A stretch of 64,000 nt of DNA from Candidatus Parcubacteria bacterium (lineage in GTDB: Bacteria; Patescibacteriota; Patescibacteriia; Patescibacteriales; UBA12075): the NCBI GenBank assembly GCA_963814275.1, contig CAWFCE010000002.1, positions 298,537-362,536 on the forward strand. Reading direction: 5' to 3'. Made by a program: the position numbers and the translations under genes. The notes under the pieces are model-generated. The model was not told the DNA's origin. It searched no databases and worked only from the letters and a program-made list of their open reading frames with translations. Below, one piece after another: positions 6,856 through 64,000 of the stretch (position 1 is its first letter; each line of letters begins with the position of its first letter).

Positions 6856-7560
6856 ATGAACGCACAAATATTTATAAATATGGATAATGAAAAATCAGGT
6901 TTTTTATTAATTAATAAGCCGAGCGGGCCGACGTCGCACGATATAGTCAATCAATTGCGCCGTGTTACGGGAATAAAAAAGATCGGCCATGCGGGCACGC
7001 TGGACCCTTTCGCCAGCGGGCTTTTGATCATGGCGGTCGGACGCGAGGCTACCCGGGAAATCAGCCATTTCGTTAAATTGGACAAAATGTATATCGCGAC
7101 ATTGCGGCTTGGTGCGGTAACAGACACCTTTGATCGAGAAGGAACCATTAAAACATCGAATGTCGAATGTCGAATGTCGAATGCAAAATTAGAAAAAATT
7201 CTGCGCCAGTTCATAGGTAAACAAAAACAAATTCCGCCGATGTATAGTGCCAAGAAGATCGGTGGTAAAAAGCTGTATCAGCTGGCCCGCCGCGGCATTA
7301 CGATCGAACGCGAACCGGTAGACATAGAGATATATGACATTGAATTAGCCGGATACGATTGGCCTATGCTCAAAATAAAAACCCGCGTTTCGAGCGGGAC
7401 TTATATACGGGCATTGGCGCGTGATATCGGATTGGCTCTCGGTTGCGGAGCCTATCTCCACGCGCTGGAACGAACCGCCATCGGCGGCTATAGTATATTG
7501 GATGCGTCCGGTCTTGATGCCCTTAAGGAGGATAATTGGCAAAAAAAGTTGTTTGTATAG
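6856..7560 (+). CDS. truB: tRNA pseudouridine(55) synthase
   Basis: GFLLINKPSGPTSHD, the catalytic Asp region GHAGTLDPFASGLL and QIPPMYSAKKIGGKKLY. The start could instead be the second Met at 6880. A heptamer repeat tract lies at 7156-7184. Confidence 0.9.
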   Translation: MNAQIFINMDNEKSGFLLINKPSGPTSHDIVNQLRRVTGIKKIGHAGTLDPFASGLLIMAVGREATREISHFVKLDKMYIATLRLGAVTDTFDREGTIKTSNVECRMSNAKLEKILRQFIGKQKQIPPMYSAKKIGGKKLYQLARRGITIEREPVDIEIYDIELAGYDWPMLKIKTRVSSGTYIRALARDIGLALGCGAYLHALERTAIGGYSILDASGLDALKEDNWQKKLFV

Positions 7561-10304: not shown

Positions 10305-11449
10305 ATGAGAGTATCGTATAATCGCCGGTGGGCCGCAGCCGCCCGGGACCAGGAATATTTTTCCTTGTATTCATTCAGTTTACGCGTCAGTTCCAGGCAG
10401 GCGGTTTTGTCGCTCAGGGCGAAGGACAGTTTGCCGGCCAGGTCGCCGCTATCGCCCGGCCGGGCGATAAAGCGGCGGTCACCGATTATTTCCGCCAGGT
10501 CGCCGACAGCCGTCACCACCATCGGACGGGTAAGCGCTAATGCTGTTTTGACCAGTCCGCTTGAAGCGTCAAAACGGCGATAGGGCAGGACGACTACATC
10601 CGCGACCGTTAACAACCGGGCGATTTCTTCTGCCGGAATATAGTATAGCTTTTTAACGATATACGGAGCCAGATCCAGTTCGTCAATTATTCCCTGGTAA
10701 ATATCCCAGCTACCCCATACCGTGCCGGCGATGATCAGTCGGGAAGAGGGATCATTCTTGATTACTTGGGACCAGGCCTTGAGCAGGACATCCAGGCCCT
10801 TGTAGGGGCGGATACTGCCGAAAAAAAGACAATATGTTTTAGACGGATCGAGCGCCAGTTTGTCCATGATCTCGGCGCGCGATCCGGTGATGGGCGGCAG
10901 TTGGCTGTCATATACACCGATGGGAATAACCGCCACGTCATCAGTTTTTATCCGGTATAGAGAGATTGCCTGACTTTTGTTCTGTTCGTTGTGGACGATG
11001 ATTTTATCGCACATCCTGACCAGGACACCCGTTAATATCGCGCCCAGGCCTCTTTGCTCGTGCGGCGTGACATTGTGGAGCGTCAGGATGGCCGGCCGCT
11101 TTTTTGTGAACCGGTTTACCAAGAGTATAGTAAAATAGACCGGGAACAGGATATGGGTCCACCATTGCAGATGGATGATATCGCCGGTAGCGGTCAGGGC
11201 GGCATCTAACCAGGAAAACGGATTGTACCAGGCCAATATCCGTTTTTCTACGCAGTTGCCGCTATCGTAGCGGCAATTTTTTCTTTCTTCATCGATCGCG
11301 CCCCCGGGGTAAAGCCATTCGGGATAAAGATTTTTGAAATTGACCAGCTCGAGCGGCAGATCGTTCGCGGCCAGTGAACGGGTGAGATGGTCGCTGTAGA
11401 CGCTGATGCTTTTTTGCGGATAAAACGCGGAAATTAATGTGACTTTCAT
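10301..11449 (-). CDS. Glycosyltransferase, GT4 (GT-B fold)
   Basis: 382 aa with the C-terminal GT1/GT4 signature ...ADVVVLPYRRFDASSGLVKTALALTRPMVVTAVGDLAEII. Confidence 0.75.
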   Translation of the reverse strand: MKVTLISAFYPQKSISVYSDHLTRSLAANDLPLELVNFKNLYPEWLYPGGAIDEERKNCRYDSGNCVEKRILAWYNPFSWLDAALTATGDIIHLQWWTHILFPVYFTILLVNRFTKKRPAILTLHNVTPHEQRGLGAILTGVLVRMCDKIIVHNEQNKSQAISLYRIKTDDVAVIPIGVYDSQLPPITGSRAEIMDKLALDPSKTYCLFFGSIRPYKGLDVLLKAWSQVIKNDPSSRLIIAGTVWGSWDIYQGIIDELDLAPYIVKKLYYIPAEEIARLLTVADVVVLPYRRFDASSGLVKTALALTRPMVVTAVGDLAEIIGDRRFIARPGDSGDLAGKLSFALSDKTACLELTRKLNEYKEKYSWSRAAAAHRRLYDTLI

Positions 11450-38880: not shown

Positions 38881-39588
38881 TTACTTGCCCAGAGCTTGCC
38901 GAGGGGTCTGCTTTCCAGTTTTTTTCATCTGCTCCCGCCACTTCGCGATTTCCGCGTGGTTGCCGGAGAGCAGGACATCCGGTACTTTGTATTCCTTGCC
39001 CTCGTCATCGATAAAAACTTCCGGCCGGGTGTATTGGCCGTACTCGAGGACGCCCGGCTCGCTATGCGATTCATCGACCGGGCTTTCGGCATTGCCCACT
39101 ACCCCGGGTATCAGGCGGGTGATCGAGTCGACTATCGCCATGGCCGGAATCTCGCCGCCTGTCAGCACATAATCGCCGATCGAGACCTCCTCATCGACGA
39201 AATTCGTGATCCGTTCGTCGACCCCCTCATAGCGGCCGCAGACGAGGATGATATCGTTTAGTTCGGAGTACTCTTTCGCTAGTTGCTGGTTCCAGGTTTT
39301 ACCCTTGGCGGAAAGCAAGATGATTTTAGGCGGTAGGCAGTAGGCGGTAGGCAGTAGGGATTTTTTGATTGATTGAATCGCTTTATACAAAACATCCACC
39401 TTCATCACCATGCCGGCGCCGCCGCCGTAAGGCGTGTCGTCGACCGTGCGGTGCTTGTCTGCGGTCCAGTCGCGCAGATCATGGGTTTCGATCTCGATCT
39501 TTTTATCTTTTTGCGCTCGTTTAATTATGCTCTCGCTGAAGTAAGAGTCGAATATTTCGGGAAAAATCGTAATGATATGGAATTTCAT
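38881..39588 (-). CDS. trmD: tRNA (guanine37-N1)-methyltransferase
   Basis: MKFHIITIFPEIF, PYGGGAGMVMK, CGRYEGVDERI, SIGDYVLTGGE. A (taggcgg/taggcag) word tract lies at 39327-39359, encoding LLPTAYCLPPK. Confidence 0.9.
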   Translation of the reverse strand: MKFHIITIFPEIFDSYFSESIIKRAQKDKKIEIETHDLRDWTADKHRTVDDTPYGGGAGMVMKVDVLYKAIQSIKKSLLPTAYCLPPKIILLSAKGKTWNQQLAKEYSELNDIILVCGRYEGVDERITNFVDEEVSIGDYVLTGGEIPAMAIVDSITRLIPGVVGNAESPVDESHSEPGVLEYGQYTRPEVFIDDEGKEYKVPDVLLSGNHAEIAKWREQMKKTGKQTPRQALGK

Positions 39589-40678: not shown

Positions 40679-40867
40679 AATTATTTTAGATAACAGATAA
40701 CAGACAGCAGATAGCAGTCGTTAATCGTGTCCTATCCTTAGAATATTATAGAATAATTAATAAATATTAGCGTAAATATCAAGTAATGTCAAATTTATTA
40801 TTCTTTTATTTTCCTGAAGTTAACTGTTAATTGTCTACTGTCAATTGTTATATACCGCCCCTCGATT

Positions 40868-41185: not shown

Positions 41186-41272
41186 AGTTTAGTTGAAAGT
41201 TATAAAGTATAAAGTTAAAAGTTTATTAGCAGGCTCTTTACAACTTGTCACTTGATAACTTTTAACTAAGGT

Positions 41273-41346
41273 GTCGGGGTGCCGGGATTCGAACCCGGGA
41301 TCTCCTACTCCCAAAGCAGGCGCCTTAGCCAGCTAGGCCACACCCC
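41273..41346 (-). tRNA. tRNA-Pro(UGG)
   Basis: Minus-strand read: cggggtgtggcctagctggctaaggcgcctgctttgggagtaggagatcccgggttcgaatcccggcaccccga, anticodon loop tttggga = UGG. Confidence 0.85.
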
Positions 41347-41351
41347 GGATT

Positions 41352-41423
41352 CAAATGACGAATGTCGAATTACGAATGTCGAAAGATATCCCATTCGTCA
41401 TTCGAAATTTGTAATTCGACATT
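41352..41423. repeat. Heptamer-word hairpin spacer (gaatgtc/gaattac words)
   Basis: aaatgacgaatgtcgaattacgaatgtcgaaag / cattcgtcattcgaaatttgtaattcgacattt form an imperfect palindrome between tRNA-Pro and tRNA-Phe. Confidence 0.8.
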
Positions 41424-41430
41424 TAAATTG

Positions 41431-41502
41431 TGCCGCGGGTCAGAATTGAACTGACGACACGTAGATTTTCAGTCTACTGCTCTACCACTGAGCTACCGCG
41501 GC
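41431..41502 (-). tRNA. tRNA-Phe(GAA)
   Basis: Minus-strand read: gccgcggtagctcagtggtagagcagtagactGAAaatctacgtgtcgtcagttcaattctgacccgcggca. Confidence 0.85.
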
Positions 41503-41505
41503 CAG

Positions 41506-41588
41506 AGAAAGTAGAAAGTATAAAGTTGAAAGTACAAAGTTATGGTATAAAATAGTACTTTTAACTTTCAACTTTATACTTTCTACTT
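41506..41588. repeat. Heptamer-word hairpin spacer (gaaagta/aaagttg words)
   Basis: agaaagtagaaagtataaagttgaaagtacaaagtt ... gtacttttaactttcaactttatactttctactt. Confidence 0.8.
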
Positions 41589-41593
41589 AATTG

Positions 41594-41666
41594 TTGCGGG
41601 GGTCGGATTCGAACCGACGACCTCCAGGTTATGGGCCTGGCGAGCTGCCAGCTGCTCTACCCCGCG
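41594..41666 (-). tRNA. Initiator tRNA-fMet(CAU)
   Basis: Minus-strand read: cgcggggtagagcagctggcagctcgccaggccCATaacctggaggtcgtcggttcgaatccgacccccgcaa. A C1:A72 mismatch is present as in bacterial initiators. The anticodon loop cccataa has C rather than U at position 33. Confidence 0.8.
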
Positions 41667-41675
41667 CTAATAAAT

Positions 41676-41741
41676 TTCGAATTACGAATGTCGAATTAGT
41701 AAATTTTTTTATTCGTCATTCGACATTCGTAATTCGTCATT
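41676..41741. repeat. Heptamer-word hairpin spacer
   Basis: ttcgaattacgaatgtcgaatta ... attcgtcattcgacattcgtaattcgtcatt. Confidence 0.8.
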
Positions 41742-41749
41742 TGTAAGTG

Positions 41750-41823
41750 TGGGCGCACATGGATTCGAACCATGGACCTCGTCCTTATCAGGGACGCGCT
41801 CTAGCCAACTGAGCTATGCGCCC
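41750..41823 (-). tRNA. tRNA-Ile(GAU)
   Basis: Minus-strand read: gggcgcatagctcagttggctagagcgcgtccctGATaaggacgaggtccatggttcgaatccatgtgcgccca. Confidence 0.9.
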
Positions 41824-42119
41824 GGTATTTTAAAAATAAATTTATTTAAGATTGTAAATATCATTAGGATTTACCCTGGCGGATAATAGAGCGAAATATG
41901 GACCCTTGCCCCGTCGGATGACGGGGTCGTCCTTATCAGGGACGCGCTCTAGCCAACTGAGCTATGCGCCCGGTATTTTAAAAATAAATTTATTTAAGAT
42001 TGTAAATATCATTAGGATTTACCCTGGCGGATAATAGAGCGAAATATGGACCCTTGCCCCGTCGGATGACGGGGTCGTCCTTATCAGGGACGCGCTCTAG
42101 CCAACTGAGCTATGCGCCC
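41824..42119 (-). repeat. Two identical 148-bp tandem units, each a tRNA-Ile pseudogene (intact 5' half, GC hairpin insert, decayed 3' half)
   Basis: The 5' half gggcgcatagctcagttggctagagcgcgtccctgataaggacga recurs ending at 41971 and 42119. It is followed by ccccgtc-atcc-gacgggg and ggtccatatttcgctctattatccgcc (compare ggtccatggttcgaatccatgtgcgccc). Confidence 0.85.
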
Positions 42120-42482
42120 GAAGCAAATTTCGAATTACGAATGTCGAATGTCGAATTTATTTTTTACATAAATTAAAATCATAATATTCGTGAATTCGTA
42201 ATCCCAACAAAAAAGATTGGTTCTAGCTAAATTGAAGGACCAATCTTTTTTGCTTGGTAAAAAAGGAACGGCCCCATAAACCGTTTATGGAGCTAGTAAG
42301 CACCAATTTGCTAGACCACCTTACGACTACCGTGGTAAGGATTTTATCCTGAATCAGAATAAATTCTGATCCATGTACCCTTCCGGAACTTCCGGAAAAG
42401 CCGACCGTAGGAATTCAGAACTGGAATTCGAAACCGAGATTTGGCATTCGACATTCGTAATTCGTCATTCCCGATGTCTCCC

Positions 42483-44078
<1,596 letters not shown>

Positions 44079-44618
44079 GAAAAGTTTTTTGACAGGTTTA
44101 CTTGCCTGTTTAAGCAATGTTGTGTAAACACGAACAGTGCTTAAGGAATATATGAGGAAAATGAGTTTCCTAATTGTTTGTACTTGGTTGTTGCAAATTG
44201 GCGCTTATTAGCGCCATATTATATTCGGTTGTTAATGACCGCAAACGCGATAAATTTGCCTTCCCGCCAGATAAGCAAAAAACAGACCTTACAGCCTGTT
44301 ATCAAGTGTAAGCGGGTCGGTTTTTGGTTTTGTTTTTAGATTGTCATGGATTTATCGCAATTTGTTATTGCAATAATAATATTAAAGGATTTGCCGAAAT
44401 CTGTCAAGGCAATTCAGATAGTAGATAACGGATAGCAGATAGCAGCCAATTTTTTATTTAATATTAAATGATTTATTTAATAAACGAGCTAATATTAGTT
44501 TCCCGGGGTGTGATTAAGGAAAATTATAAATTTATATACAATCAAATTCCGGTTATTTATCAAGAGTATTTGCACAGGTTTTGAACATATTTAAAATGCG
44601 TTTTAAAAAAATTATTTT

Positions 44619-47771: not shown

Positions 47772-49352
47772 ATGCATATTCTAATTATCATTTTTTCCAT
47801 TCTATTTACTGTTTTAGCGGTCAAGCGTTTGAATTGGGCGGTTTTTTTGATGTTGGCCCTGCTGCCTGCTTATCAAATCCGATTTCAGGTTCTGGGTATA
47901 CCTTTTACTCTGCTTGAAACAATGATCCTGACCTCATTTGCTATTTGGCTCATCAGGAACTGGAAGCAGATATTAGAGAATTTAAAAAATAAAATAAAGA
48001 ACCGTTTACAAATTACAAATTACAAATTACAAATTACCACGCGTTATCCTTTCGACCTCGAGATTATCGCCCTGCTCATCATATCCTGGATCGCGATCGT
48101 GGTGGCCGGATTTTCGAATGAAGCGCTGGGAGTATGGAAGGCATATTTTTTCGAACCGGTGCTGGTGTTTATTTTGGTGATGAATGTTTTCGGTAATAGC
48201 GCAAAAGACGCAGACTTCACGCAAAAGGCGCAAAATGCCGCCCAGCCGAAATCGGGCAAGGGAATTGAGCCGGTTTTGTGGGCGTTGACTCTGGGGGCGG
48301 GTTGGATAGCGCTGTGGGCGATTATCGAGCGGATCACCGGCTGGACCGCCCACGGGAATTTTTGGCCGCGCGTGACCGGTCCGTTTCCTTATCCCAATGC
48401 GCTGGGGCTTTATTTGGGCCCGGTCTCGGTTCTATTGGTCGGTTGGATTTTGAACAAGATGCAAGACGCAAGATACAAGATACAAAATGACAAAATATTT
48501 ATTGTGCAAATTTTGTCTATTGCGCTTGTGGTACTATTGTCTTTGTTCGCGATCATGCTGGCCAGGAGCGAAGGGGCGATCATCGGGATCCTGGCGGCGG
48601 TATTGGTCATGGGGTTGTTTATGTCCGGTAGTAAAAGAAAGAAGGTCCGTTGGCTGCCGGCCGGCATTACCGGGTTAATATTACTTTTCGTTTTTATAAG
48701 CGCGCCGCTCTATCTCCTGGCCGTACCGCGCGACCAGTATTTCGATTTCCATAATGGCGGGCTTAATTACCTGTCGGACAAGATAATGCTTAAGGACTTG
48801 TCGGGGGAGATCAGGAAACAGCAGTGGCGGGAGACCTGGGCGATGATGAAAGACAATTGGCGCTGGCTGACCGGCACCGGCCTGTCCGGTTATCGGGCGG
48901 CGATCGCGCCGTACCACCAGCCGGGGATATTCTTCAACAGCGGCCGTGATCCGGAATTCCACCGCCACACGGTCTGGGACGAAGCCTACCGCAACGCGCA
49001 TTGGCAGCCGGTTGAGATATATATGTATCCGCACAATTTACTCCTGAATTTCTGGACGGAGCTGGGGCTGGCCGGAGTAATTTTGTTTATCTGGATAATC
49101 CTTAAATTTATTTATTTAGCGTTTACCAGTTACAAATTGCAAACCGCAAATCCAACCGGTGGCCCCCAAAAGGAATATTTACTTTTGGGTTTACTGGGTG
49201 CGATAATAGTTATTGTCGTCCATGGCATTGTCGATGTGCCGTATTTCAAAAACGATCTGGCGGTTTTGTTCTGGCTGCTGGCGGCAATGATGGGTTTTAT
49301 CGGAATATCCGCCCATATCAAAGAAAAAAAAGATAATATTGATGCAGGTTGA
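47772..49352 (+). CDS. O-antigen ligase-like (Wzy_C domain) polytopic membrane protein
   Basis: 526 aa and ~12 TM helices, with a large loop containing ...LARSEGAIIGILAAVL... and HPHNLLLNFWTELGLAG (Wzy_C-type H..N....E.G). A word tract (acaaatt)x4 lies at 48008-48038. Confidence 0.65.
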   Translation: MHILIIIFSILFTVLAVKRLNWAVFLMLALLPAYQIRFQVLGIPFTLLETMILTSFAIWLIRNWKQILENLKNKIKNRLQITNYKLQITTRYPFDLEIIALLIISWIAIVVAGFSNEALGVWKAYFFEPVLVFILVMNVFGNSAKDADFTQKAQNAAQPKSGKGIEPVLWALTLGAGWIALWAIIERITGWTAHGNFWPRVTGPFPYPNALGLYLGPVSVLLVGWILNKMQDARYKIQNDKIFIVQILSIALVVLLSLFAIMLARSEGAIIGILAAVLVMGLFMSGSKRKKVRWLPAGITGLILLFVFISAPLYLLAVPRDQYFDFHNGGLNYLSDKIMLKDLSGEIRKQQWRETWAMMKDNWRWLTGTGLSGYRAAIAPYHQPGIFFNSGRDPEFHRHTVWDEAYRNAHWQPVEIYMYPHNLLLNFWTELGLAGVILFIWIILKFIYLAFTSYKLQTANPTGGPQKEYLLLGLLGAIIVIVVHGIVDVPYFKNDLAVLFWLLAAMMGFIGISAHIKEKKDNIDAG

Positions 49353-49467: not shown

Positions 49468-50223
49468 GTGGCCAAGCTGATACTACAAAAATTCATCGTC
49501 GATTCAGGCTTTTGCTCGCGGCGCCAGGCGACCGAATTGATCAGGGCGGGGAAAGTAACGGTAAACGGTGAAGTGGCTGAGCCGGGCATGAAAGTATTTT
49601 CCAATGACGATGTCCGGATAGGAAAGAAGCGTTTACCCGGCGAGCCGGAAAAAATCTACCTGATCATAAATAAGCCGGATGGCTATGTCTGCACGAACCG
49701 GACTTTTACCGGTGAGAAGAACGTTTATGACCTGCTGCTTGACCGCCAGGGAGAAAAAGCGTATCCGAAACAGCGCCTGTTCGTGGTTGGCCGTCTGGAC
49801 AAGAACAGCCGCGGCTTAGTGTTAATCACCAATGACGGCGATATGGCCCAGCGGGTGTCGCATCCCCGGTTCGGGCATGAAAAAGTATATGCAGTAAAAT
49901 TGCGGATGACGAATGACGAATGCCAAAAGAATAAAGATAGATTGATAAAGAACCTGGTAAAGGGGGTCGATATCGGCGAGGGAGACGGTGTTGTCAGGGC
50001 AAAAAAGGCTGAGTATTTGGGTGAAAATAAATTCAAAGTAATCTTGACCCAGGGGGTGAAACGGCAGATCAGACGGATGTTCAAGACTCTGGGCATCGAA
50101 GTCATCGATCTCAAGCGGACGCGTATCGGCTGTACCAAATGCGGCATTGAATTGGGCGATCTGCGCTGTGGCCGTTGGCGCAAACTCAAGCTGGAAGAAA
50201 TAGAAAAATTACAGGAGAGTTAA
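49468..50223 (+). CDS. RsuA/RluB-family pseudouridine synthase with an S4 domain
   Basis: GTG start. S4 domain: LQKFIVDSGFCSRRQATELIRAGKVTVNGE. Catalytic motif GRLDKNSRGLVLITNDG. A word tract gatgacgaatgacgaatgcc lies at 49905-49924. Confidence 0.85.
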   Translation: MAKLILQKFIVDSGFCSRRQATELIRAGKVTVNGEVAEPGMKVFSNDDVRIGKKRLPGEPEKIYLIINKPDGYVCTNRTFTGEKNVYDLLLDRQGEKAYPKQRLFVVGRLDKNSRGLVLITNDGDMAQRVSHPRFGHEKVYAVKLRMTNDECQKNKDRLIKNLVKGVDIGEGDGVVRAKKAEYLGENKFKVILTQGVKRQIRRMFKTLGIEVIDLKRTRIGCTKCGIELGDLRCGRWRKLKLEEIEKLQES

Positions 50224-50341
50224 TGGTCAAGTGCTAAAAGTCAAATTCGGAGAGGTGGCTCGAGTGGTTGCCCGCGACATAGCCGCTTGGCGGCTCGCGC
50301 GGGTCCGCGCACCCGCGAAGCGGGATGTCGCGGAAAGGCTT

Positions 50342-50587
50342 ATGTATTATACATATTTTTTATTTAGTAAAAACCATAAAAAGGTTTATGTCGGTTCGAC
50401 CGAAGATTTGAAGACCAGAATCAAAACACATAATGAAGGCAGGGTGCAATCGACAAGATATTATCGGCCATGGGTAATTGTGTATTATGAGGCCCATCGC
50501 AATAAAACATTGGCAAGAAAAGCCGAACTTTTCTATAAATCCAGCCAAGGCAGGCGGCAAGTAAAAAAGAAATTAGGTTTAGAGTAA
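50342..50587 (+). CDS. Small GIY-YIG nuclease (81 aa; 82 codons incl. stop), copy 1
   Basis: MYYTYFLFSKNHKKVYVGSTEDLKTRIKTHNEGRVQSTRYYRPWVIVYYEAHRNKTLARKAELFYK... carries the GIY (YTYFL) and YIG (VYVGST) motifs, the conserved Arg and the conserved Glu. The track's upstream extension translates the tRNA fragment and hairpins, so I rejected it. Confidence 0.8.
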   Translation: MYYTYFLFSKNHKKVYVGSTEDLKTRIKTHNEGRVQSTRYYRPWVIVYYEAHRNKTLARKAELFYKSSQGRRQVKKKLGLE

Positions 50588-50697
50588 TATTATTATAGAT
50601 TTCCGGAGAGGTGGCTCGAGTGGTTGCCCGCGACGTAGCCGCTTGGCGGCTCGCGCGGGTCCGCGCACCCGCGAAGCGGGATGTCGCGGAAAGGCTT

Positions 50698-50943
50698 ATG
50701 TATTATACATATTTTTTATTTAGTAAAAACCATAAAAAGGTTTATGTCGGTTCAACCGAAGATTTGAAGACCAGAATCAAAACACATAATGAAGGCAGGG
50801 TGCAATCGACAAGATATTATCGGCCATGGGTAATTGTGTATTATGAGGCCCATCGCAATAAAACATTGGCAAGAAAAGCCGAACTTTTCTATAAATCCAG
50901 CCAAGGCAGGCGGCAAGTAAAAAAGAAATTAGGTTTAGAGTAA
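50698..50943 (+). CDS. Small GIY-YIG nuclease, copy 2
   Basis: The protein is identical to copy 1, with one synonymous tcg-to-tca change. Confidence 0.8.
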   Translation: MYYTYFLFSKNHKKVYVGSTEDLKTRIKTHNEGRVQSTRYYRPWVIVYYEAHRNKTLARKAELFYKSSQGRRQVKKKLGLE

Positions 50944-51053
50944 TATTATTATAGATTTCCGGAGAGGTGGCTCGAGTGGTTGCCCGCGACGTAGCCGCTT
51001 GGCGGCTCGCGCGGGTCCGCGCACCCGCGAAGCGGGATGTCGCGGAAAGGCTT

Positions 51054-51300
51054 ATGTATTATACATATTTTTTATTTAGTAAAAACCATAAAAAGGTTTA
51101 TGTCGGTTCGAACCGAAGATTTGAAGACCAGAATCAAAACACATAATGAAGGCAGGGTGCAATCGACAAGATATTATCGGCCATGGGTAATTGTGTATTA
51201 TGAGGCCCATCGCAATAAAACATTGGCAAGAAAAGCCGAACTTTTCTATAAATCCAGCCAAGGCAGGCGGCAAGTAAAAAAGAAATTAGGTTTAGAGTAA
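51054..51300 (+). pseudogene. GIY-YIG nuclease copy 3, frameshifted
   Basis: gtcggttcgAaccgaag has one extra base relative to copies 1 and 2, and the frame breaks right after the YVGS motif. Confidence 0.75.
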
Positions 51301-51317
51301 TATTATTATAGATTTCC

Positions 51318-51408
51318 GGAGAGGTGGCTCGAGTGGTTGAAGGCGTCGCTCTCGAAAAGCGATGTGCGTGCAAGCGTACCGGGAGTTCGAATCTCCCCCT
51401 CTCCGCCA
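51318..51408 (+). tRNA. tRNA-Ser(CGA), CCA encoded
   Basis: ggagaggtggctcgagtggttgaaggcgtcgctctCGAaaagcgatgtgcgtgcaagcgtaccgggagttcgaatctccccctctccgcca, with a long variable arm. Confidence 0.9.
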
Positions 51409-54754: not shown

Positions 54755-55312
54755 ATGTTTTTGATCGACCATCTGCCCAACCAACAACCGGGTGAAAAGA
54801 TAATCCGGATCATCCGTCGGGATTTGTTTATTTTGCTTAAAAAGATAATAATGTTCCTGGGTCTTTTTTTGCTCCCCTTGATACTGCTTTTCGTTATTAT
54901 CTCGGCTGAGCCGCAGTTCCTGATCGGGGAAATATCATTGCCGCTCCTGGTCCTGGGCACAAGCGCCTATTATCTTTTTATCTGGGCGTTTTTCTTTTTT
55001 TCTTTTATCGACTATTATCTGGACGTCTGGTTCATCACCGATGAGCGTATTATTGATATCCAGCAGCAGGGCTTCTTTTCCCGGGTAATAAGCGAGCAGA
55101 AATTGTTCCGCATTCAGGACGTAACGAGCGAGGTCAAGGGGATTTGGCCGACCGTGTTCGCTTTCGGCGACGTCTATGTCCAGACGGCGGGCACTAAAAC
55201 CCGCTTCCATTTCGACGACGTACCCAAGCCGGACGAAGTCCGCGACCTGATCATCAAATTGGCCGAAAAACGCCGCCACGAGGTGCAAACCGAAGAAGAC
55301 CGGGATAGTTGA
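54755..55312 (+). CDS. Membrane protein with a bacterial PH (bPH_2/YdbT-like) domain
   Basis: PGEKIIRIIRRDLFILL, two TM helices, then ...YLDVWFITDERIIDIQQQGFFSRVISEQKLFRIQDV. The stop codon lies inside the first 'gatagttga' word of the downstream repeat. Confidence 0.6.
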   Translation: MFLIDHLPNQQPGEKIIRIIRRDLFILLKKIIMFLGLFLLPLILLFVIISAEPQFLIGEISLPLLVLGTSAYYLFIWAFFFFSFIDYYLDVWFITDERIIDIQQQGFFSRVISEQKLFRIQDVTSEVKGIWPTVFAFGDVYVQTAGTKTRFHFDDVPKPDEVRDLIIKLAEKRRHEVQTEEDRDS

Positions 55313-55394
55313 GATAGTTGAGATAGTTGAGATTGTTGGGATGGTTGGGATGGTTGGGATAATCAAATTTAATCCCAACCATCCTAACAATCCC
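55304..55394. repeat. 9-nt-word hairpin (gttgagata / gttgggatg)
   Basis: gatagttgagatagttgagatagttgagattgttgggatggttgggatggttgggat, then aatcaaattt, then aatcccaaccatcctaacaatccc. Confidence 0.8.
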
Positions 55395-56531
55395 ATGAAG
55401 CTAAATGATTTCGATTACAATCTGCCCAAAGAGCTGATCGCTCAGGAGCCGATGAAACCGCGTGACCATTCGCGGCTTCTTTTGTTGGACAAAGAGTCGG
55501 GCGAGATCGAACACCGACATTTCAATGACCTGGCGGACTATTTGCGGGCCGGTGATGTTATCGTAATGAATAATTCCAAAGTGTTTCCCGCGCGTTTGAT
55601 CGGCCAGCGCGAAGGAAGCGGCGGGAAAGTGGAAGTGTTTTTATTGCGAAACCTCTCCCCCCATTCCCCTCTCCTAGCCAGCAGAAGGGGTGGTATAGAT
55701 AAAGGTGAGGTTTGGCAGTGTTTGGTGGGCGGACATCGGCGCAAAGAAGGTTTGGCGGTAGAGTTCGAAAATGGATTGGAAGCGGAAGTTACCAAAAACA
55801 ATCAGGATGGCACCTTTGATGTCCGGTTCAATGAAAGCGGAAAGGTGTTAATGGATATTGTGAATAAAATTGGACAAATGCCGTTGCCACCCTATATTAA
55901 ACGTAGGGGCATTGCGCGCAATGCCCGTACGGACGAGGCGAATTACCAAACTGTATATGCCGATGACAGTAAGGTCGGGTCAGTGGCGGCGCCGACTGCC
56001 GGTTTCCATTTTACTCCTGAACTGATCGATAAATTGCAGAAGAAAGGCGTCCAATTCGAATATATTACCCTGCATGTCGGCCTGGGCACGTTCGCGCCGG
56101 TTAAGACGGATGACATCACAAAACACAAAATGCACGCGGAATGGGTCGAAGTTGAAGGTAAATTGTTGGCGAGTATAGCCAAGGCAAAAAAAGAGGGCCG
56201 GAGGATAATTGCCGTTGGAACCACATCGGTTAGAACACTGGAATCAATATATAAAAAAATTCTCAGTATAAATTCTGAAACAATAAATAAAATCGAAAAT
56301 CGAAAATCGAAAATCGAAAATTACCAAGGTTGGGTGAATATTTTCATCTATCCGGGTTATGAATTCAGGATTGTCGACGCGATGATCACGAATTTCCATC
56401 TGCCCAAATCGACCCTGCTCATGCTGGTGAGCGCGTTTGCGGGAAAGGAAAATATTGACAAGGCCTATCAATCTGCTATAAAGAATGGATACCGATTTTT
56501 TTCTTACGGTGATGCTATGTTGGTATATTAA
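55395..56531 (+). CDS. queA: S-adenosylmethionine:tRNA ribosyltransferase-isomerase
   Basis: MKLNDFDYNLPKELIAQEP, PLPPYIKR, GSVAAPTAGFHFT, AVGTTSVRTLES, IFIYPGYEF, ITNFHLPKSTLLMLVSAF. A (cgaaaat)x4 tract lies at 56291-56321. Confidence 0.9.
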   Translation: MKLNDFDYNLPKELIAQEPMKPRDHSRLLLLDKESGEIEHRHFNDLADYLRAGDVIVMNNSKVFPARLIGQREGSGGKVEVFLLRNLSPHSPLLASRRGGIDKGEVWQCLVGGHRRKEGLAVEFENGLEAEVTKNNQDGTFDVRFNESGKVLMDIVNKIGQMPLPPYIKRRGIARNARTDEANYQTVYADDSKVGSVAAPTAGFHFTPELIDKLQKKGVQFEYITLHVGLGTFAPVKTDDITKHKMHAEWVEVEGKLLASIAKAKKEGRRIIAVGTTSVRTLESIYKKILSINSETINKIENRKSKIENYQGWVNIFIYPGYEFRIVDAMITNFHLPKSTLLMLVSAFAGKENIDKAYQSAIKNGYRFFSYGDAMLVY

Positions 56532-57789: not shown

Positions 57790-58482
57790 ATGCATGAAGT
57801 TCGCAGCTTAGCGAAACGGATTGGCGTCTCCTTTGACGACATCGATCTGCTCAGGCAAGCAGTAGTCCACCGTTCTTATTTGAACGAAAATCCCCAGTTT
57901 CCCCTGCCGCATAATGAACGTCTGGAATTTCTCGGCGACGCGGTATTGGAAATTATCGTAACCGAATATTTGTTCAAGCATTTTCCGGAAACACCGGAAG
58001 GTGATCTGACCAATTGGCGGGCCAGCCTGGTCAATTCCAAGATGCTGTCGATAATAGCGAATGAGATCGGCCTAGAAGATTACTTGTATCTATCGAAAGG
58101 GGAAGCGAAAGACAGCAACACCAAGGCCAGGCAGTATATTCTGGCGAACGCGGTCGAAGCGCTTATTGGCGCAATTTATCTCGACCAGGGGATAAAGGTG
58201 TCTAAAAAATTCGTCAAAACCAATATAATAGATAAGCTCGAATATATACTGGAAAACCAACTATATCTTGATCCAAAATCCAAATTCCAGGAAAAAGCCC
58301 AGGAAATATACAAGATAACCCCGCATTACAAAGTGCTGTCCGAAGTCGGACCGGACCATGCGAAAGTTTTCGAGGTCGGATTATATTTGAATGACAGATT
58401 GGTCAGCCGGGGCAAGGGTTCGAGCAAACAGGAGGCGCAGGTCAAGGCGGCGGATAAGGGATTGAAGAAAATGGAATGGTGA
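57790..58482 (+). CDS. rnc: Ribonuclease III
   Basis: Signature NERLEFLGDAVLE, followed by the C-terminal dsRBD (KSKFQEKAQE...GKGSSKQEAQVKAA). Confidence 0.9.
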   Translation: MHEVRSLAKRIGVSFDDIDLLRQAVVHRSYLNENPQFPLPHNERLEFLGDAVLEIIVTEYLFKHFPETPEGDLTNWRASLVNSKMLSIIANEIGLEDYLYLSKGEAKDSNTKARQYILANAVEALIGAIYLDQGIKVSKKFVKTNIIDKLEYILENQLYLDPKSKFQEKAQEIYKITPHYKVLSEVGPDHAKVFEVGLYLNDRLVSRGKGSSKQEAQVKAADKGLKKMEW

Positions 58483-58797
58483 GGCGAATGTCGAATGACG
58501 AATTTCAAATGACAAATAATTTTTGATCTCATGGAAGTCCGAAAATAGTTCGGGCTTCTTTTTGTTTAGGCGGAAATATGTTAAAATAAATAAAGACAGC
58601 TATTATTGTATTGTGATTATCTTAATATTAAGTAAAAGAATTGAGAAATTGTTTTATCAGTGTTTAATCCGCGTAGTAATCCGCGCTTGCCTGCCTGCCG
58701 GCAGGCAGGTAAGATCTGCGGTGAATAGGCTAGTATATAGAAAATACGCGTATTGAAGCATAAGGGATATTCGACGTTTCTCGTTCAGAATAATACT

Positions 58798-60544: not shown

Positions 60545-64000
<3,456 letters not shown>

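Follow-up and report, generated by a model that had tools for sequence, protein, structure and literature searches.

How does DNA with a period of seven nucleotides, a unit that is not a multiple of three, come to lie inside the reading frames of conserved housekeeping genes, and what keeps it there? The question is raised by a 64,000-nt stretch of a Candidatus Parcubacteria bacterium genome (contig CAWFCE010000002.1, positions 298,537 to 362,536; hereafter the window), in which truB (open reading frame [ORF] 6856-7560, 234 aa) and several other genes carry short in-frame tandem heptamer tracts. Here, we show that these tracts lie in loops, that they recur at orthologous positions with many different words, that their length changes by whole units, that stop codons are filtered out of them, and that whole tract segments are replaced patchwise between relatives. 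We consider it reasonably probable that they represent unstable heptanucleotide repeat DNA tolerated in permissive surface loops, with selection keeping it in frame, stop-free and polar.

Heptamer tracts within coding sequences of the window

Seven coding tracts were found in the window, each with 2.4-4.7 copies of a 7-nt unit and with no consensus common to them. Five had been listed in a sequence-only reading of this DNA, in truB, trmD, the genes of a Wzy_C protein and an RsuA/RluB-like pseudouridine synthase, and queA; their in-frame coordinates, units and peptides were all reproduced, and the Pfam domains of the five gene products (TruB_N, tRNA_m1G_MT, Wzy_C, S4+PseudoU_synth_2 and Queuosine_synth, respectively) bear out the gene identities. 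A second tract in the Wzy_C gene (48455-48485) and one in the RNase III linker (58271-58289) come in addition. The tracts, together with a palindrome in queA, are listed here; the numbered queA hot spots are described below.

7152-7183 (+): truB tract, a degenerate AACATCG followed by (AATGTCG)x3.6-4, peptide TSNVECRMSN, aa 100-109
39327-39358 (-): trmD tract, plus strand (TAGGCGG/TAGGCAG)x4.6, antisense CTGCCTA/CCGCCTA, peptide LLPTAYCLPP, aa 78-88
48006-48037 (+): Wzy_C protein tract 1, (TTACAAA)x4.6, peptide RLQITNYKLQITT
48455-48485 (+): Wzy_C protein tract 2, (CAAGATR)x4.4, peptide KMQDARYKIQN
49899-49922 (+): RsuA/RluB-like pseudouridine synthase tract, (AATGACG)x2.4, peptide RMTNDEC
55902-55931 (+): queA hot spot 2, 30-nt in-frame palindrome, CGTAGGGGCATTGCG directly followed by CGCAATGCCCGTACG, arms 93% complementary with no spacer, peptide GIARNARTDE
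56289-56321 (+): queA tract, hot spot 3, (AAAATCG)x4.7, peptide NKIENRKSKIEN
58271-58289 (+): RNase III tract, short, (ATCCAAA)x2.7, in the linker that joins the catalytic domain to the double-stranded-RNA-binding domain

The period of seven stands out from all others. At one score threshold the window holds 15 period-7 tracts against 0.1 in shuffled sequence, an excess of ~150-fold, and other periods yield 0-1 tracts at the same threshold save for the multiples 14 and 21; period 7 also accounts for 38 of 91 TRF rows. By location, 7 tracts are coding, 22 intergenic and 1 in rRNA, counts that rest on a greedy ORF map in which 73% of the window is coding and 9% belongs to RNA genes. Tract density is therefore ~13 times higher in intergenic than in coding DNA, yet coding tracts still occur far above chance. 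The sequence-only reading had called the two kinds indistinguishable, which holds for the words, since these are shared, but not for their arrangement: for 14 of the 22 intergenic tracts, an inverted partner lies no more than 200 nt away and pairs with them to form long perfect hairpins, which is the case for none of the 7 coding tracts. We looked for excess RNA structure at five coding tracts and found none; a z-score of -3.7 in queA was rejected as tract structure because the signal came from a neighboring hairpin. At least 20 distinct consensus words occur in the window. We also considered a genome-specific vocabulary, which would suggest a trans-acting factor or ectopic conversion, and rejected it for lack of enrichment within the window, where 6.3% of word pairs are related, compared to 9.8% between genomes and 5.4% at random.

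Structural models bear out the proposal that the tracts encode loops, both for TruB, whose tract (aa 101-109) is predicted to form the loop from strand 98-100 to helix 109-117 (AlphaFold model, pLDDT 90), and for TrmD, whose tract (aa 78-88) would connect helix 64-77 to strand 88-98. That the tracts are insertions within loops, as had also been suggested, was upheld in part. Relative to solved homologs, the window proteins have 7 extra residues at the tract in TrmD, 14-16 in QueA and 3-6 in the RsuA-like protein, but only 1 in TruB, where the tract substitutes for a segment of normal length and adds none. At hot spot 2, too, QueA is 7 aa longer than its Thermotoga maritima homolog. The traces of selection against stop codons are visible in individual tracts: the trmD repeat can be coding only in the antisense direction because its plus-strand word includes TAG, and the RsuA-like tract ends with GAATGCC at the point where a third in-phase copy would create TGA. 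Across 100 tract-bearing orthologs, the sense strands of the tracts contain 44% A and 13% G, and K, S, Q, N, R and T abound in the encoded peptides.

Shared hot spots and their turnover across Patescibacteria

The best protein matches of the window all come from Patescibacteria (Parcubacteria and Falkowbacteria), with next-best orthologs 67-78% identical (67% for TruB). Because the databases hold no close relative of the window genome, strain-level questions were put to related populations instead; in the following, L numbers denote DNA loci of other genomes and P numbers the protein sequences compared. To find tract-derived peptides in proteins, we used a scanner that compares 9-aa windows with the translations of every perfect heptamer repeat, applied to 120 orthologs per family. 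At no more than one mismatch it matched 16 of 120 TruB, 40 of 120 QueA and 44 of 120 TrmD orthologs, whereas reversed or shuffled controls gave 0-1, and nearly all matches fell within the tract loops of the window rather than being scattered. With two mismatches allowed, 36 of 120 TruB orthologs carry a tract-derived peptide in the loop that bears the window's tract. For TrmD, tract peptides occupy the corresponding loop in ~50 of 120 orthologs. The QueA matches form three hot spots, the strongest of which is the tract site of the window (hot spot 3); hot spot 2 bears tract peptides in 21 orthologs, so that other species have heptamer tracts where the window has its palindrome, and at the remaining hot spot the window carries a weaker hairpin-like insert. 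Two diverse representatives of the RsuA-like family (P0410 and P0429) likewise have tract peptides in the window's loop. Altogether, 59 distinct words occur across the 100 tract-bearing orthologs, and 60-85% of orthologs have no recognizable tract at the site.

The same picture emerges at the DNA level. In an alignment of patescibacterial TruB, odd peptides such as ITNYKLQI, SNDECQMSN and QLRITNCEL occupy the window's tract position, and at exactly the same site of truB we found (AATTACN)x4.5 in L001, AATTTCG AATGACG AATGTCA AATGTCG in L003 and (AATTACG)x5 in L004. Further tracts in the DNA of relatives were found in trmD (L012, L013 and L020), queA (L014 and L018) and the Wzy gene of L004, whose Wzy_C ortholog has tracts in both loops that match tracts 1 and 2 of the window, with other words. 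A contig search with TruB returned truB genes of Firmicutes and Flavobacteriaceae only, and these loci served as a tract-free control: none of the Firmicutes truB loci L005-L011 contains such a tract. Since the same loops bear tracts with dozens of words in many related species, the tract positions would be old, fast-changing expansion sites common to the phylum, and the tracts are not the product of a sporadic invasion of one genome. The view that a repeat-generating process extends into coding DNA, where loops tolerate it, holds broadly, given the loop positions and the longer proteins, but not as an event in one genome, as it recurs across patescibacterial orthologs. Third codon positions of truB are only 39-41% identical between the window and three orthologs, yet each ortholog tract is near-perfect, so that passive inheritance cannot explain the periodicity, which appears instead to be actively renewed.

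Two kinds of change were observed among relatives. The first is a change in length. In a tRNA-spacer hairpin of L012 and L013, whose surroundings are identical for >1 kb, one arm has gained and the other has lost 7 nt; this whole-unit change was thus seen in relatives rather than in the window genome itself. At the tract, several pairs of close orthologs are set apart by exactly 7 aa (3 units, 21 nt), and the TrmD protein P0260 has six 7-aa repeats from the word family of the window. These pairs were found by comparing proteins with similar flanks, a comparison that replaced one within clusters of ≥90% identity, in which no length change at tracts was seen; the latter was biased because proteins with different tracts fall in different clusters. 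In queA of L016 and L017 (L016 3660-3790), the tract contains a 15-nt deletion as well as a C-to-T change that brings one unit into agreement with its neighbors and creates a TAA stop codon. The downstream frame of this allele is fully intact and conserved, and the allele is present in two independent assemblies (L016 and L017); it might represent a pseudogene of recent origin, a split gene or a case of read-through. All length differences in coding tracts are multiples of 3 nt (15 or 21 nt). No frameshift allele with one unit more or less was found among 360 orthologs or cluster members, though protein databases would under-sample frameshifted genes. In one near-clonal JGI population, a coding tract in a UvrD-like gene was equally long in 5 of 5 contigs.

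The second kind of change is the replacement of entire segments. The segments at the hot spots can be unrelated even between proteins whose flanks are 91-96% identical, and comparison of DNA loci showed how such differences are bounded. The trmD regions of L012 and L013 are 100% identical over ~1150 nt, then differ in a ~170-200-nt patch of ~65-70% identity centered on the tract, which reads (GCAGACA)x4 in one and (CAAGATA)x4 in the other, and return to 97-99% identity beyond it. L014 and L015 are identical over 6.5 kb up to a ~500-nt patch in queA that spans hot spot 2 to past hot spot 3 and differs mainly at third codon positions; at hot spot 3 one carries an inverted tract pair and the other a GC palindrome with an 18-bp stem, both in frame. 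In queA of L016 and L018, divergence begins at the tract and continues onwards. The synonymous pattern of the differences indicates that the patches were imported by recombination from diverged alleles and not mutated in place. In one strain of the near-clonal JGI population (L021), a second site in the UvrD-like gene and a nearby spacer carry wholly different cassettes with sharp borders, laid out as tract, GC-rich hairpin and tract.

Further repeats were noted in and near these genes. Within the TrmD cluster of P0303 (≥90% identical), some members (P0379, P0385 and P0386 were compared) have an insert of 12 or 24 residues, FTPLEIMPRSSTSGFNNQPKFLTG, after the motif YTRPE[VI]; it has FT on each flank and is not obviously derived from a heptamer, and represents another polymorphic in-frame insert site. 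Directly upstream of queA, a hairpin (55302-55395) is formed by a tandem repeat with a 9-nt unit (GATAGTTGA x6.4) and its approximate complement (AATCCCAAC x2.8), which comes after it; the gene probably starts at 55395, and a longer ORF starting at 55341 is probably wrong.

Repeats in rRNA genes and tRNA spacers

Heptamer tracts had also been ascribed to the variable helices of both rRNAs, which applies to the 23S but not the 16S gene. Aligned with that of Escherichia coli, the 23S gene has ~13 expansion segments, in which we found one clear and ~3 weak tracts, including those in two regions:

62045-62213 (+): 23S expansion segment at E. coli ~1162-1184, arms weakly period-7, GTTTAGA x4.6 with 72% matches
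62757-62825 (+): 23S variable region at E. coli ~1732-1754, two period-7 tracts, AACAATT and CAAATGT

The arms of the first segment pair into a ~75-bp helix (z = -10.2). Period-7 sequence was looked for and not found in the 95-nt insert of 16S helix 6, and the remainder of the 16S gene contains only a single 2-copy ATAGGCC. The helix-6 insert (43907-44013, minus strand) does share ~80 nt of related sequence with the 23S segment at 62953-63091, TTGCTTCGCAA..ACCGCGGA..ACGCAGAT..GCGTAAAATC.GCG, and on the basis of this similarity one insert family appears to be present in both rRNAs, the genes of which are unlinked and on opposite strands. Two GATARCA tracts in direct orientation (40688-40717 and 44424-44445) bracket the entire 16S-tRNA operon on the minus strand.

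Downstream of the 16S gene lies a tRNA cluster (41190-42160) whose spacers are without exception long hairpins, each composed of two heptamer tracts in inverted orientation; between tRNA-Met and tRNA-Phe, for instance, 41506-41540 is paired to 41557-41588 (z = -11). The AAAGTNN word family occurs in tRNA-spacer hairpins of a different species as well (L012 1-450 and L013 1-500). These hairpins look like processing stems of the RNase III type, and rnc is located at 57790-58482. The window also contains two large tandem repeats that include the 5' part of a tRNA gene, a perfect one of 148 nt x2.3 (41779-42120, 100% identical) with part of tRNA-Ile and one of 356 nt x3.1 (50248-51339, 99%) with part of tRNA-Ser. 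ARAGORN predicts one complete tRNA in each array, which could reflect true partial tRNA duplications or an assembly artifact.

Origin of the coding tracts and comparison with known systems

The explanation that we favor, with moderate confidence, treats the coding tracts as heptanucleotide simple-sequence repeats of the same class as those in tRNA spacers and 23S expansion segments, located in the few surface loops and linkers of conserved proteins that would permit them. They would be renewed by two routes, whole-unit slippage or realignment on the one hand and segment replacement by recombination with other alleles on the other, and selection would pass only those states that are in frame, stop-free on the sense strand and mostly polar. 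Slippage, which has been proposed as the cause of the over-representation of heptameric repeats in some bacteria (PMC4692102), would be the generating process, and the tracts would have no selected function at the nucleic-acid level. Their peptides would be neutral passengers around which the enzymes work, and frameshift or nonsense states would be accidents and not a regulated switch. Given that tract instability is real, accidental gene inactivation does happen.

Several observations weigh against tolerated slippage-prone DNA as the full account. No explanation considered here supplies a reason for a unit size of 7. The extents of the tracts peak at 4 units (20, 19, 28, 8 and 1 tracts of 2, 3, 4, 5 and 6 units, respectively; modal length ~30 nt), which counts against slippage because at a simple slippage equilibrium longer tracts should be progressively rarer; the spectrum of perfect-run copy numbers was discarded in favor of tract extents, being confounded by perfect sub-runs within imperfect tracts. 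The truB tract is the sole tract in 14 kb of L001 and in 4.8 kb of L003, and a lone tract amid tract-free flanks hints at site-specific maintenance. The truB tracts of the window and L003 are identical at 26 of 30 positions compared to 63% elsewhere in the gene. Homogenization of coding tracts by slippage alone is awkward, as only steps of three units keep the frame. Near-clonal strains, moreover, differ by complete cassettes with sharp borders and not stepwise. The favored explanation leaves the 7-nt period, the ~30-nt modal length and the cassette-like replacement at fixed sites unaccounted for. In a speculative alternative, a dedicated patescibacterial process, and not plain slippage, would write and replace ~30-nt cassettes with a 7-nt period, often with a small GC-rich palindrome, at set positions within protein genes, tRNA spacers and the expansion segments of rRNA; near-clonal strains would then differ entirely at such sites, and the coding tracts of the window would be products of that process. 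We regard this proposal as unlikely.

Some of the same observations would suit a selected nucleic-acid element, in which ~30 nt of 7-nt periodicity functions in DNA or RNA regardless of the word and is maintained at fixed positions, some of them inside genes; it might act as a binding array, a hot spot for replication forks or recombination, or an RNA-processing signal. Periodicity is indeed kept at orthologous sites despite saturated synonymous divergence, the modal length is ~4 units, the truB tract persists in DNA without other tracts, the junctions of imported patches lie at or near hot spots in 3 of 3 strain pairs, and helices of great stability form between paired tracts in 23S rRNA and the tRNA spacers of a genome that has an RNase III gene. 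However, 59 unrelated words in 100 proteins make sequence-specific recognition unlikely, no genome-specific vocabulary exists (6.3% of related pairs within the window, as given above), and 60-85% of orthologs lack a recognizable tract at the site. Nor could a hairpin function apply to coding tracts, which are solitary and unstructured, and junctions beside heterology are expected anyway in strain pairs that were picked for differing there. We therefore judge such an element improbable. It is quite unlikely, in our view, that the tracts are sites repeatedly visited by a tiny mobile element, a GC-rich palindrome of ~21-32 nt (CCTGCC...GGCAGG) that inserts into heptamer arrays or generates them. 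In its favor are trmD of L020 (6001-6678), where a 21-nt palindrome interrupts (AAAATCC)n and adds exactly 7 aa relative to P0292, with flanks 92% identical, and the UvrD-like gene of L021 (~10563-10666), where the four sister contigs have other sequence in place of a tract, GC hairpin and tract. The PAGRQ or CLAGRQA motif that the palindrome encodes is also met again in several species, in their TruB, TrmD and QueA, and the window has an intergenic palindrome, CCTGCCTGCCGGCAGGCAGG, at 58691-58710, of which the palindromes within the tracts of L020 and L021 are close variants. Yet the window copy is only marginally above chance, with a match in 12 of 100 shuffles too, most tracts, including all 7 coding tracts of the window, have no palindrome, and no associated transposase was identified. 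In the one case examined, a target-site duplication was not needed to explain the insert, and cycles of such duplication as a source of 7-nt arrays were rejected, as P0292 and P0329/L020 differ by a plain 21-nt insert.

The sequence-only reading had raised a further possibility, that the tracts are slippage-prone contingency loci in which the gain or loss of one unit switches an enzyme off or on. Heptanucleotide phase variation has precedents in E. coli K1, with neuO, and in Haemophilus influenzae, with the hmw1A/2A promoters (PMC13001214, PMC8262952), single-unit changes do occur in spacer tracts of the clade, and a queA allele with a stop codon inside its tract and an intact downstream frame is present in two independent assemblies. 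In the coding tracts of related populations, by contrast, no single-unit on/off variation among close strains was seen: length differences are all multiples of 3 nt, the one population sampled in five contigs is uniform, and the 360 orthologs and cluster members include no one-unit allele, with the caveat on frameshifted genes given above. With only 2.4-4.7 copies per tract, mid-gene positions in loops and tRNA or rRNA modification enzymes as targets, where surface, host-interaction or restriction-modification genes would be expected and only the Wzy_C protein is envelope-related, phase variation finds no support as an explanation and we consider it very unlikely; the coding tracts are probably not on/off switches.

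Bacterial heptamer repeats have been recognized for decades, remain unexplained and are regarded as intergenic. In the present case they form part of the loops of universally conserved enzymes, occupying equivalent positions throughout a phylum and turning over quickly between strains, which provides a natural comparative system for the origin of 7-nt repeats, with hundreds of orthologous sites at which the reading frame acts as an inherent selection filter. The tracts are also a concrete source, at the DNA level, of the unusual insertions that have been reported for proteins and rRNAs of the candidate phyla radiation, for which our literature search for heptamer tracts found nothing. On the practical side, tract segments can break metagenome assemblies, split protein clusters at 90% identity and distort alignments and phylogenies, and the peptide scanner can detect the phenomenon using protein databases alone.

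Among known systems, the closest in form are repeats of one or a few heptamer words, namely the cyanobacterial STRR sequences, GGGAATC in Xanthomonas and TAACTGA in Beggiatoaceae, cyanobacteria and Bacteroidetes (PMC4692102, PMC4679880), the last of which, where they overlap ORFs, mostly fall in hypothetical proteins or at the termini of proteins (PMC4679880). The tracts described here resemble them in having a 7-nt unit in 2-6 copies, in being mostly intergenic, often as inverted pairs, with occasional overlap of ORFs, and in that slippage has been proposed as their cause. Tandem arrays far above chance and whole-unit differences between strains (in the relatives L012 and L013) are likewise shared. 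In contrast to the one or three words of other genomes, however, dozens of unrelated words per genome occur here (at least 20 in the window), the host is a Patescibacteria genome of ~1.3 Mb, and the tracts are found mid-gene and in frame within conserved enzymes, in orthologous loops phylum-wide. Elhai et al. (2008, Genome Res; cited in PMC3116915) reportedly described small dispersed repeats, tiny and mobile, inside cyanobacterial heptamer repeats; these are hairpin-like inserts of ~21 nt in heptamer arrays, to be compared with trmD of L020 and with L021, though they come from a different taxon, and for the coding tracts of the window the possible likeness is a lead only.

In their placement the coding tracts are most like the Rickettsia palindromic elements (RPEs), selfish repeats that lie in frame within housekeeping genes (PMC10969869). 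Both are repeat DNA without apparent purpose at the protein level, in frame at fold-compatible positions of unrelated conserved genes as well as in RNA genes and spacers, and the in-frame surface insertions of the window are absent from orthologs elsewhere, as in the Firmicutes truB loci. RPEs, though, are ~150 bp long with a conserved consensus and a conserved peptide, whereas the coding tracts measure ~30 nt, have only their period in common, encode unrelated peptides and possess neither a shared consensus nor a palindromic structure; RPEs are also sporadic, whereas the sites described here recur across orthologs. With the neuO and hmw loci the tracts share a 7-nt unit whose copy number can set the reading frame or expression level, but those tracts are long, hypervariable and located in surface and host-interaction genes, as opposed to the 2.4-4.7 copies described here, which lie in housekeeping enzymes and for which no frameshift allele was observed. 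What is new is the combination of many words, mid-gene in-frame tracts, orthologous hot spots across a phylum and fast turnover.

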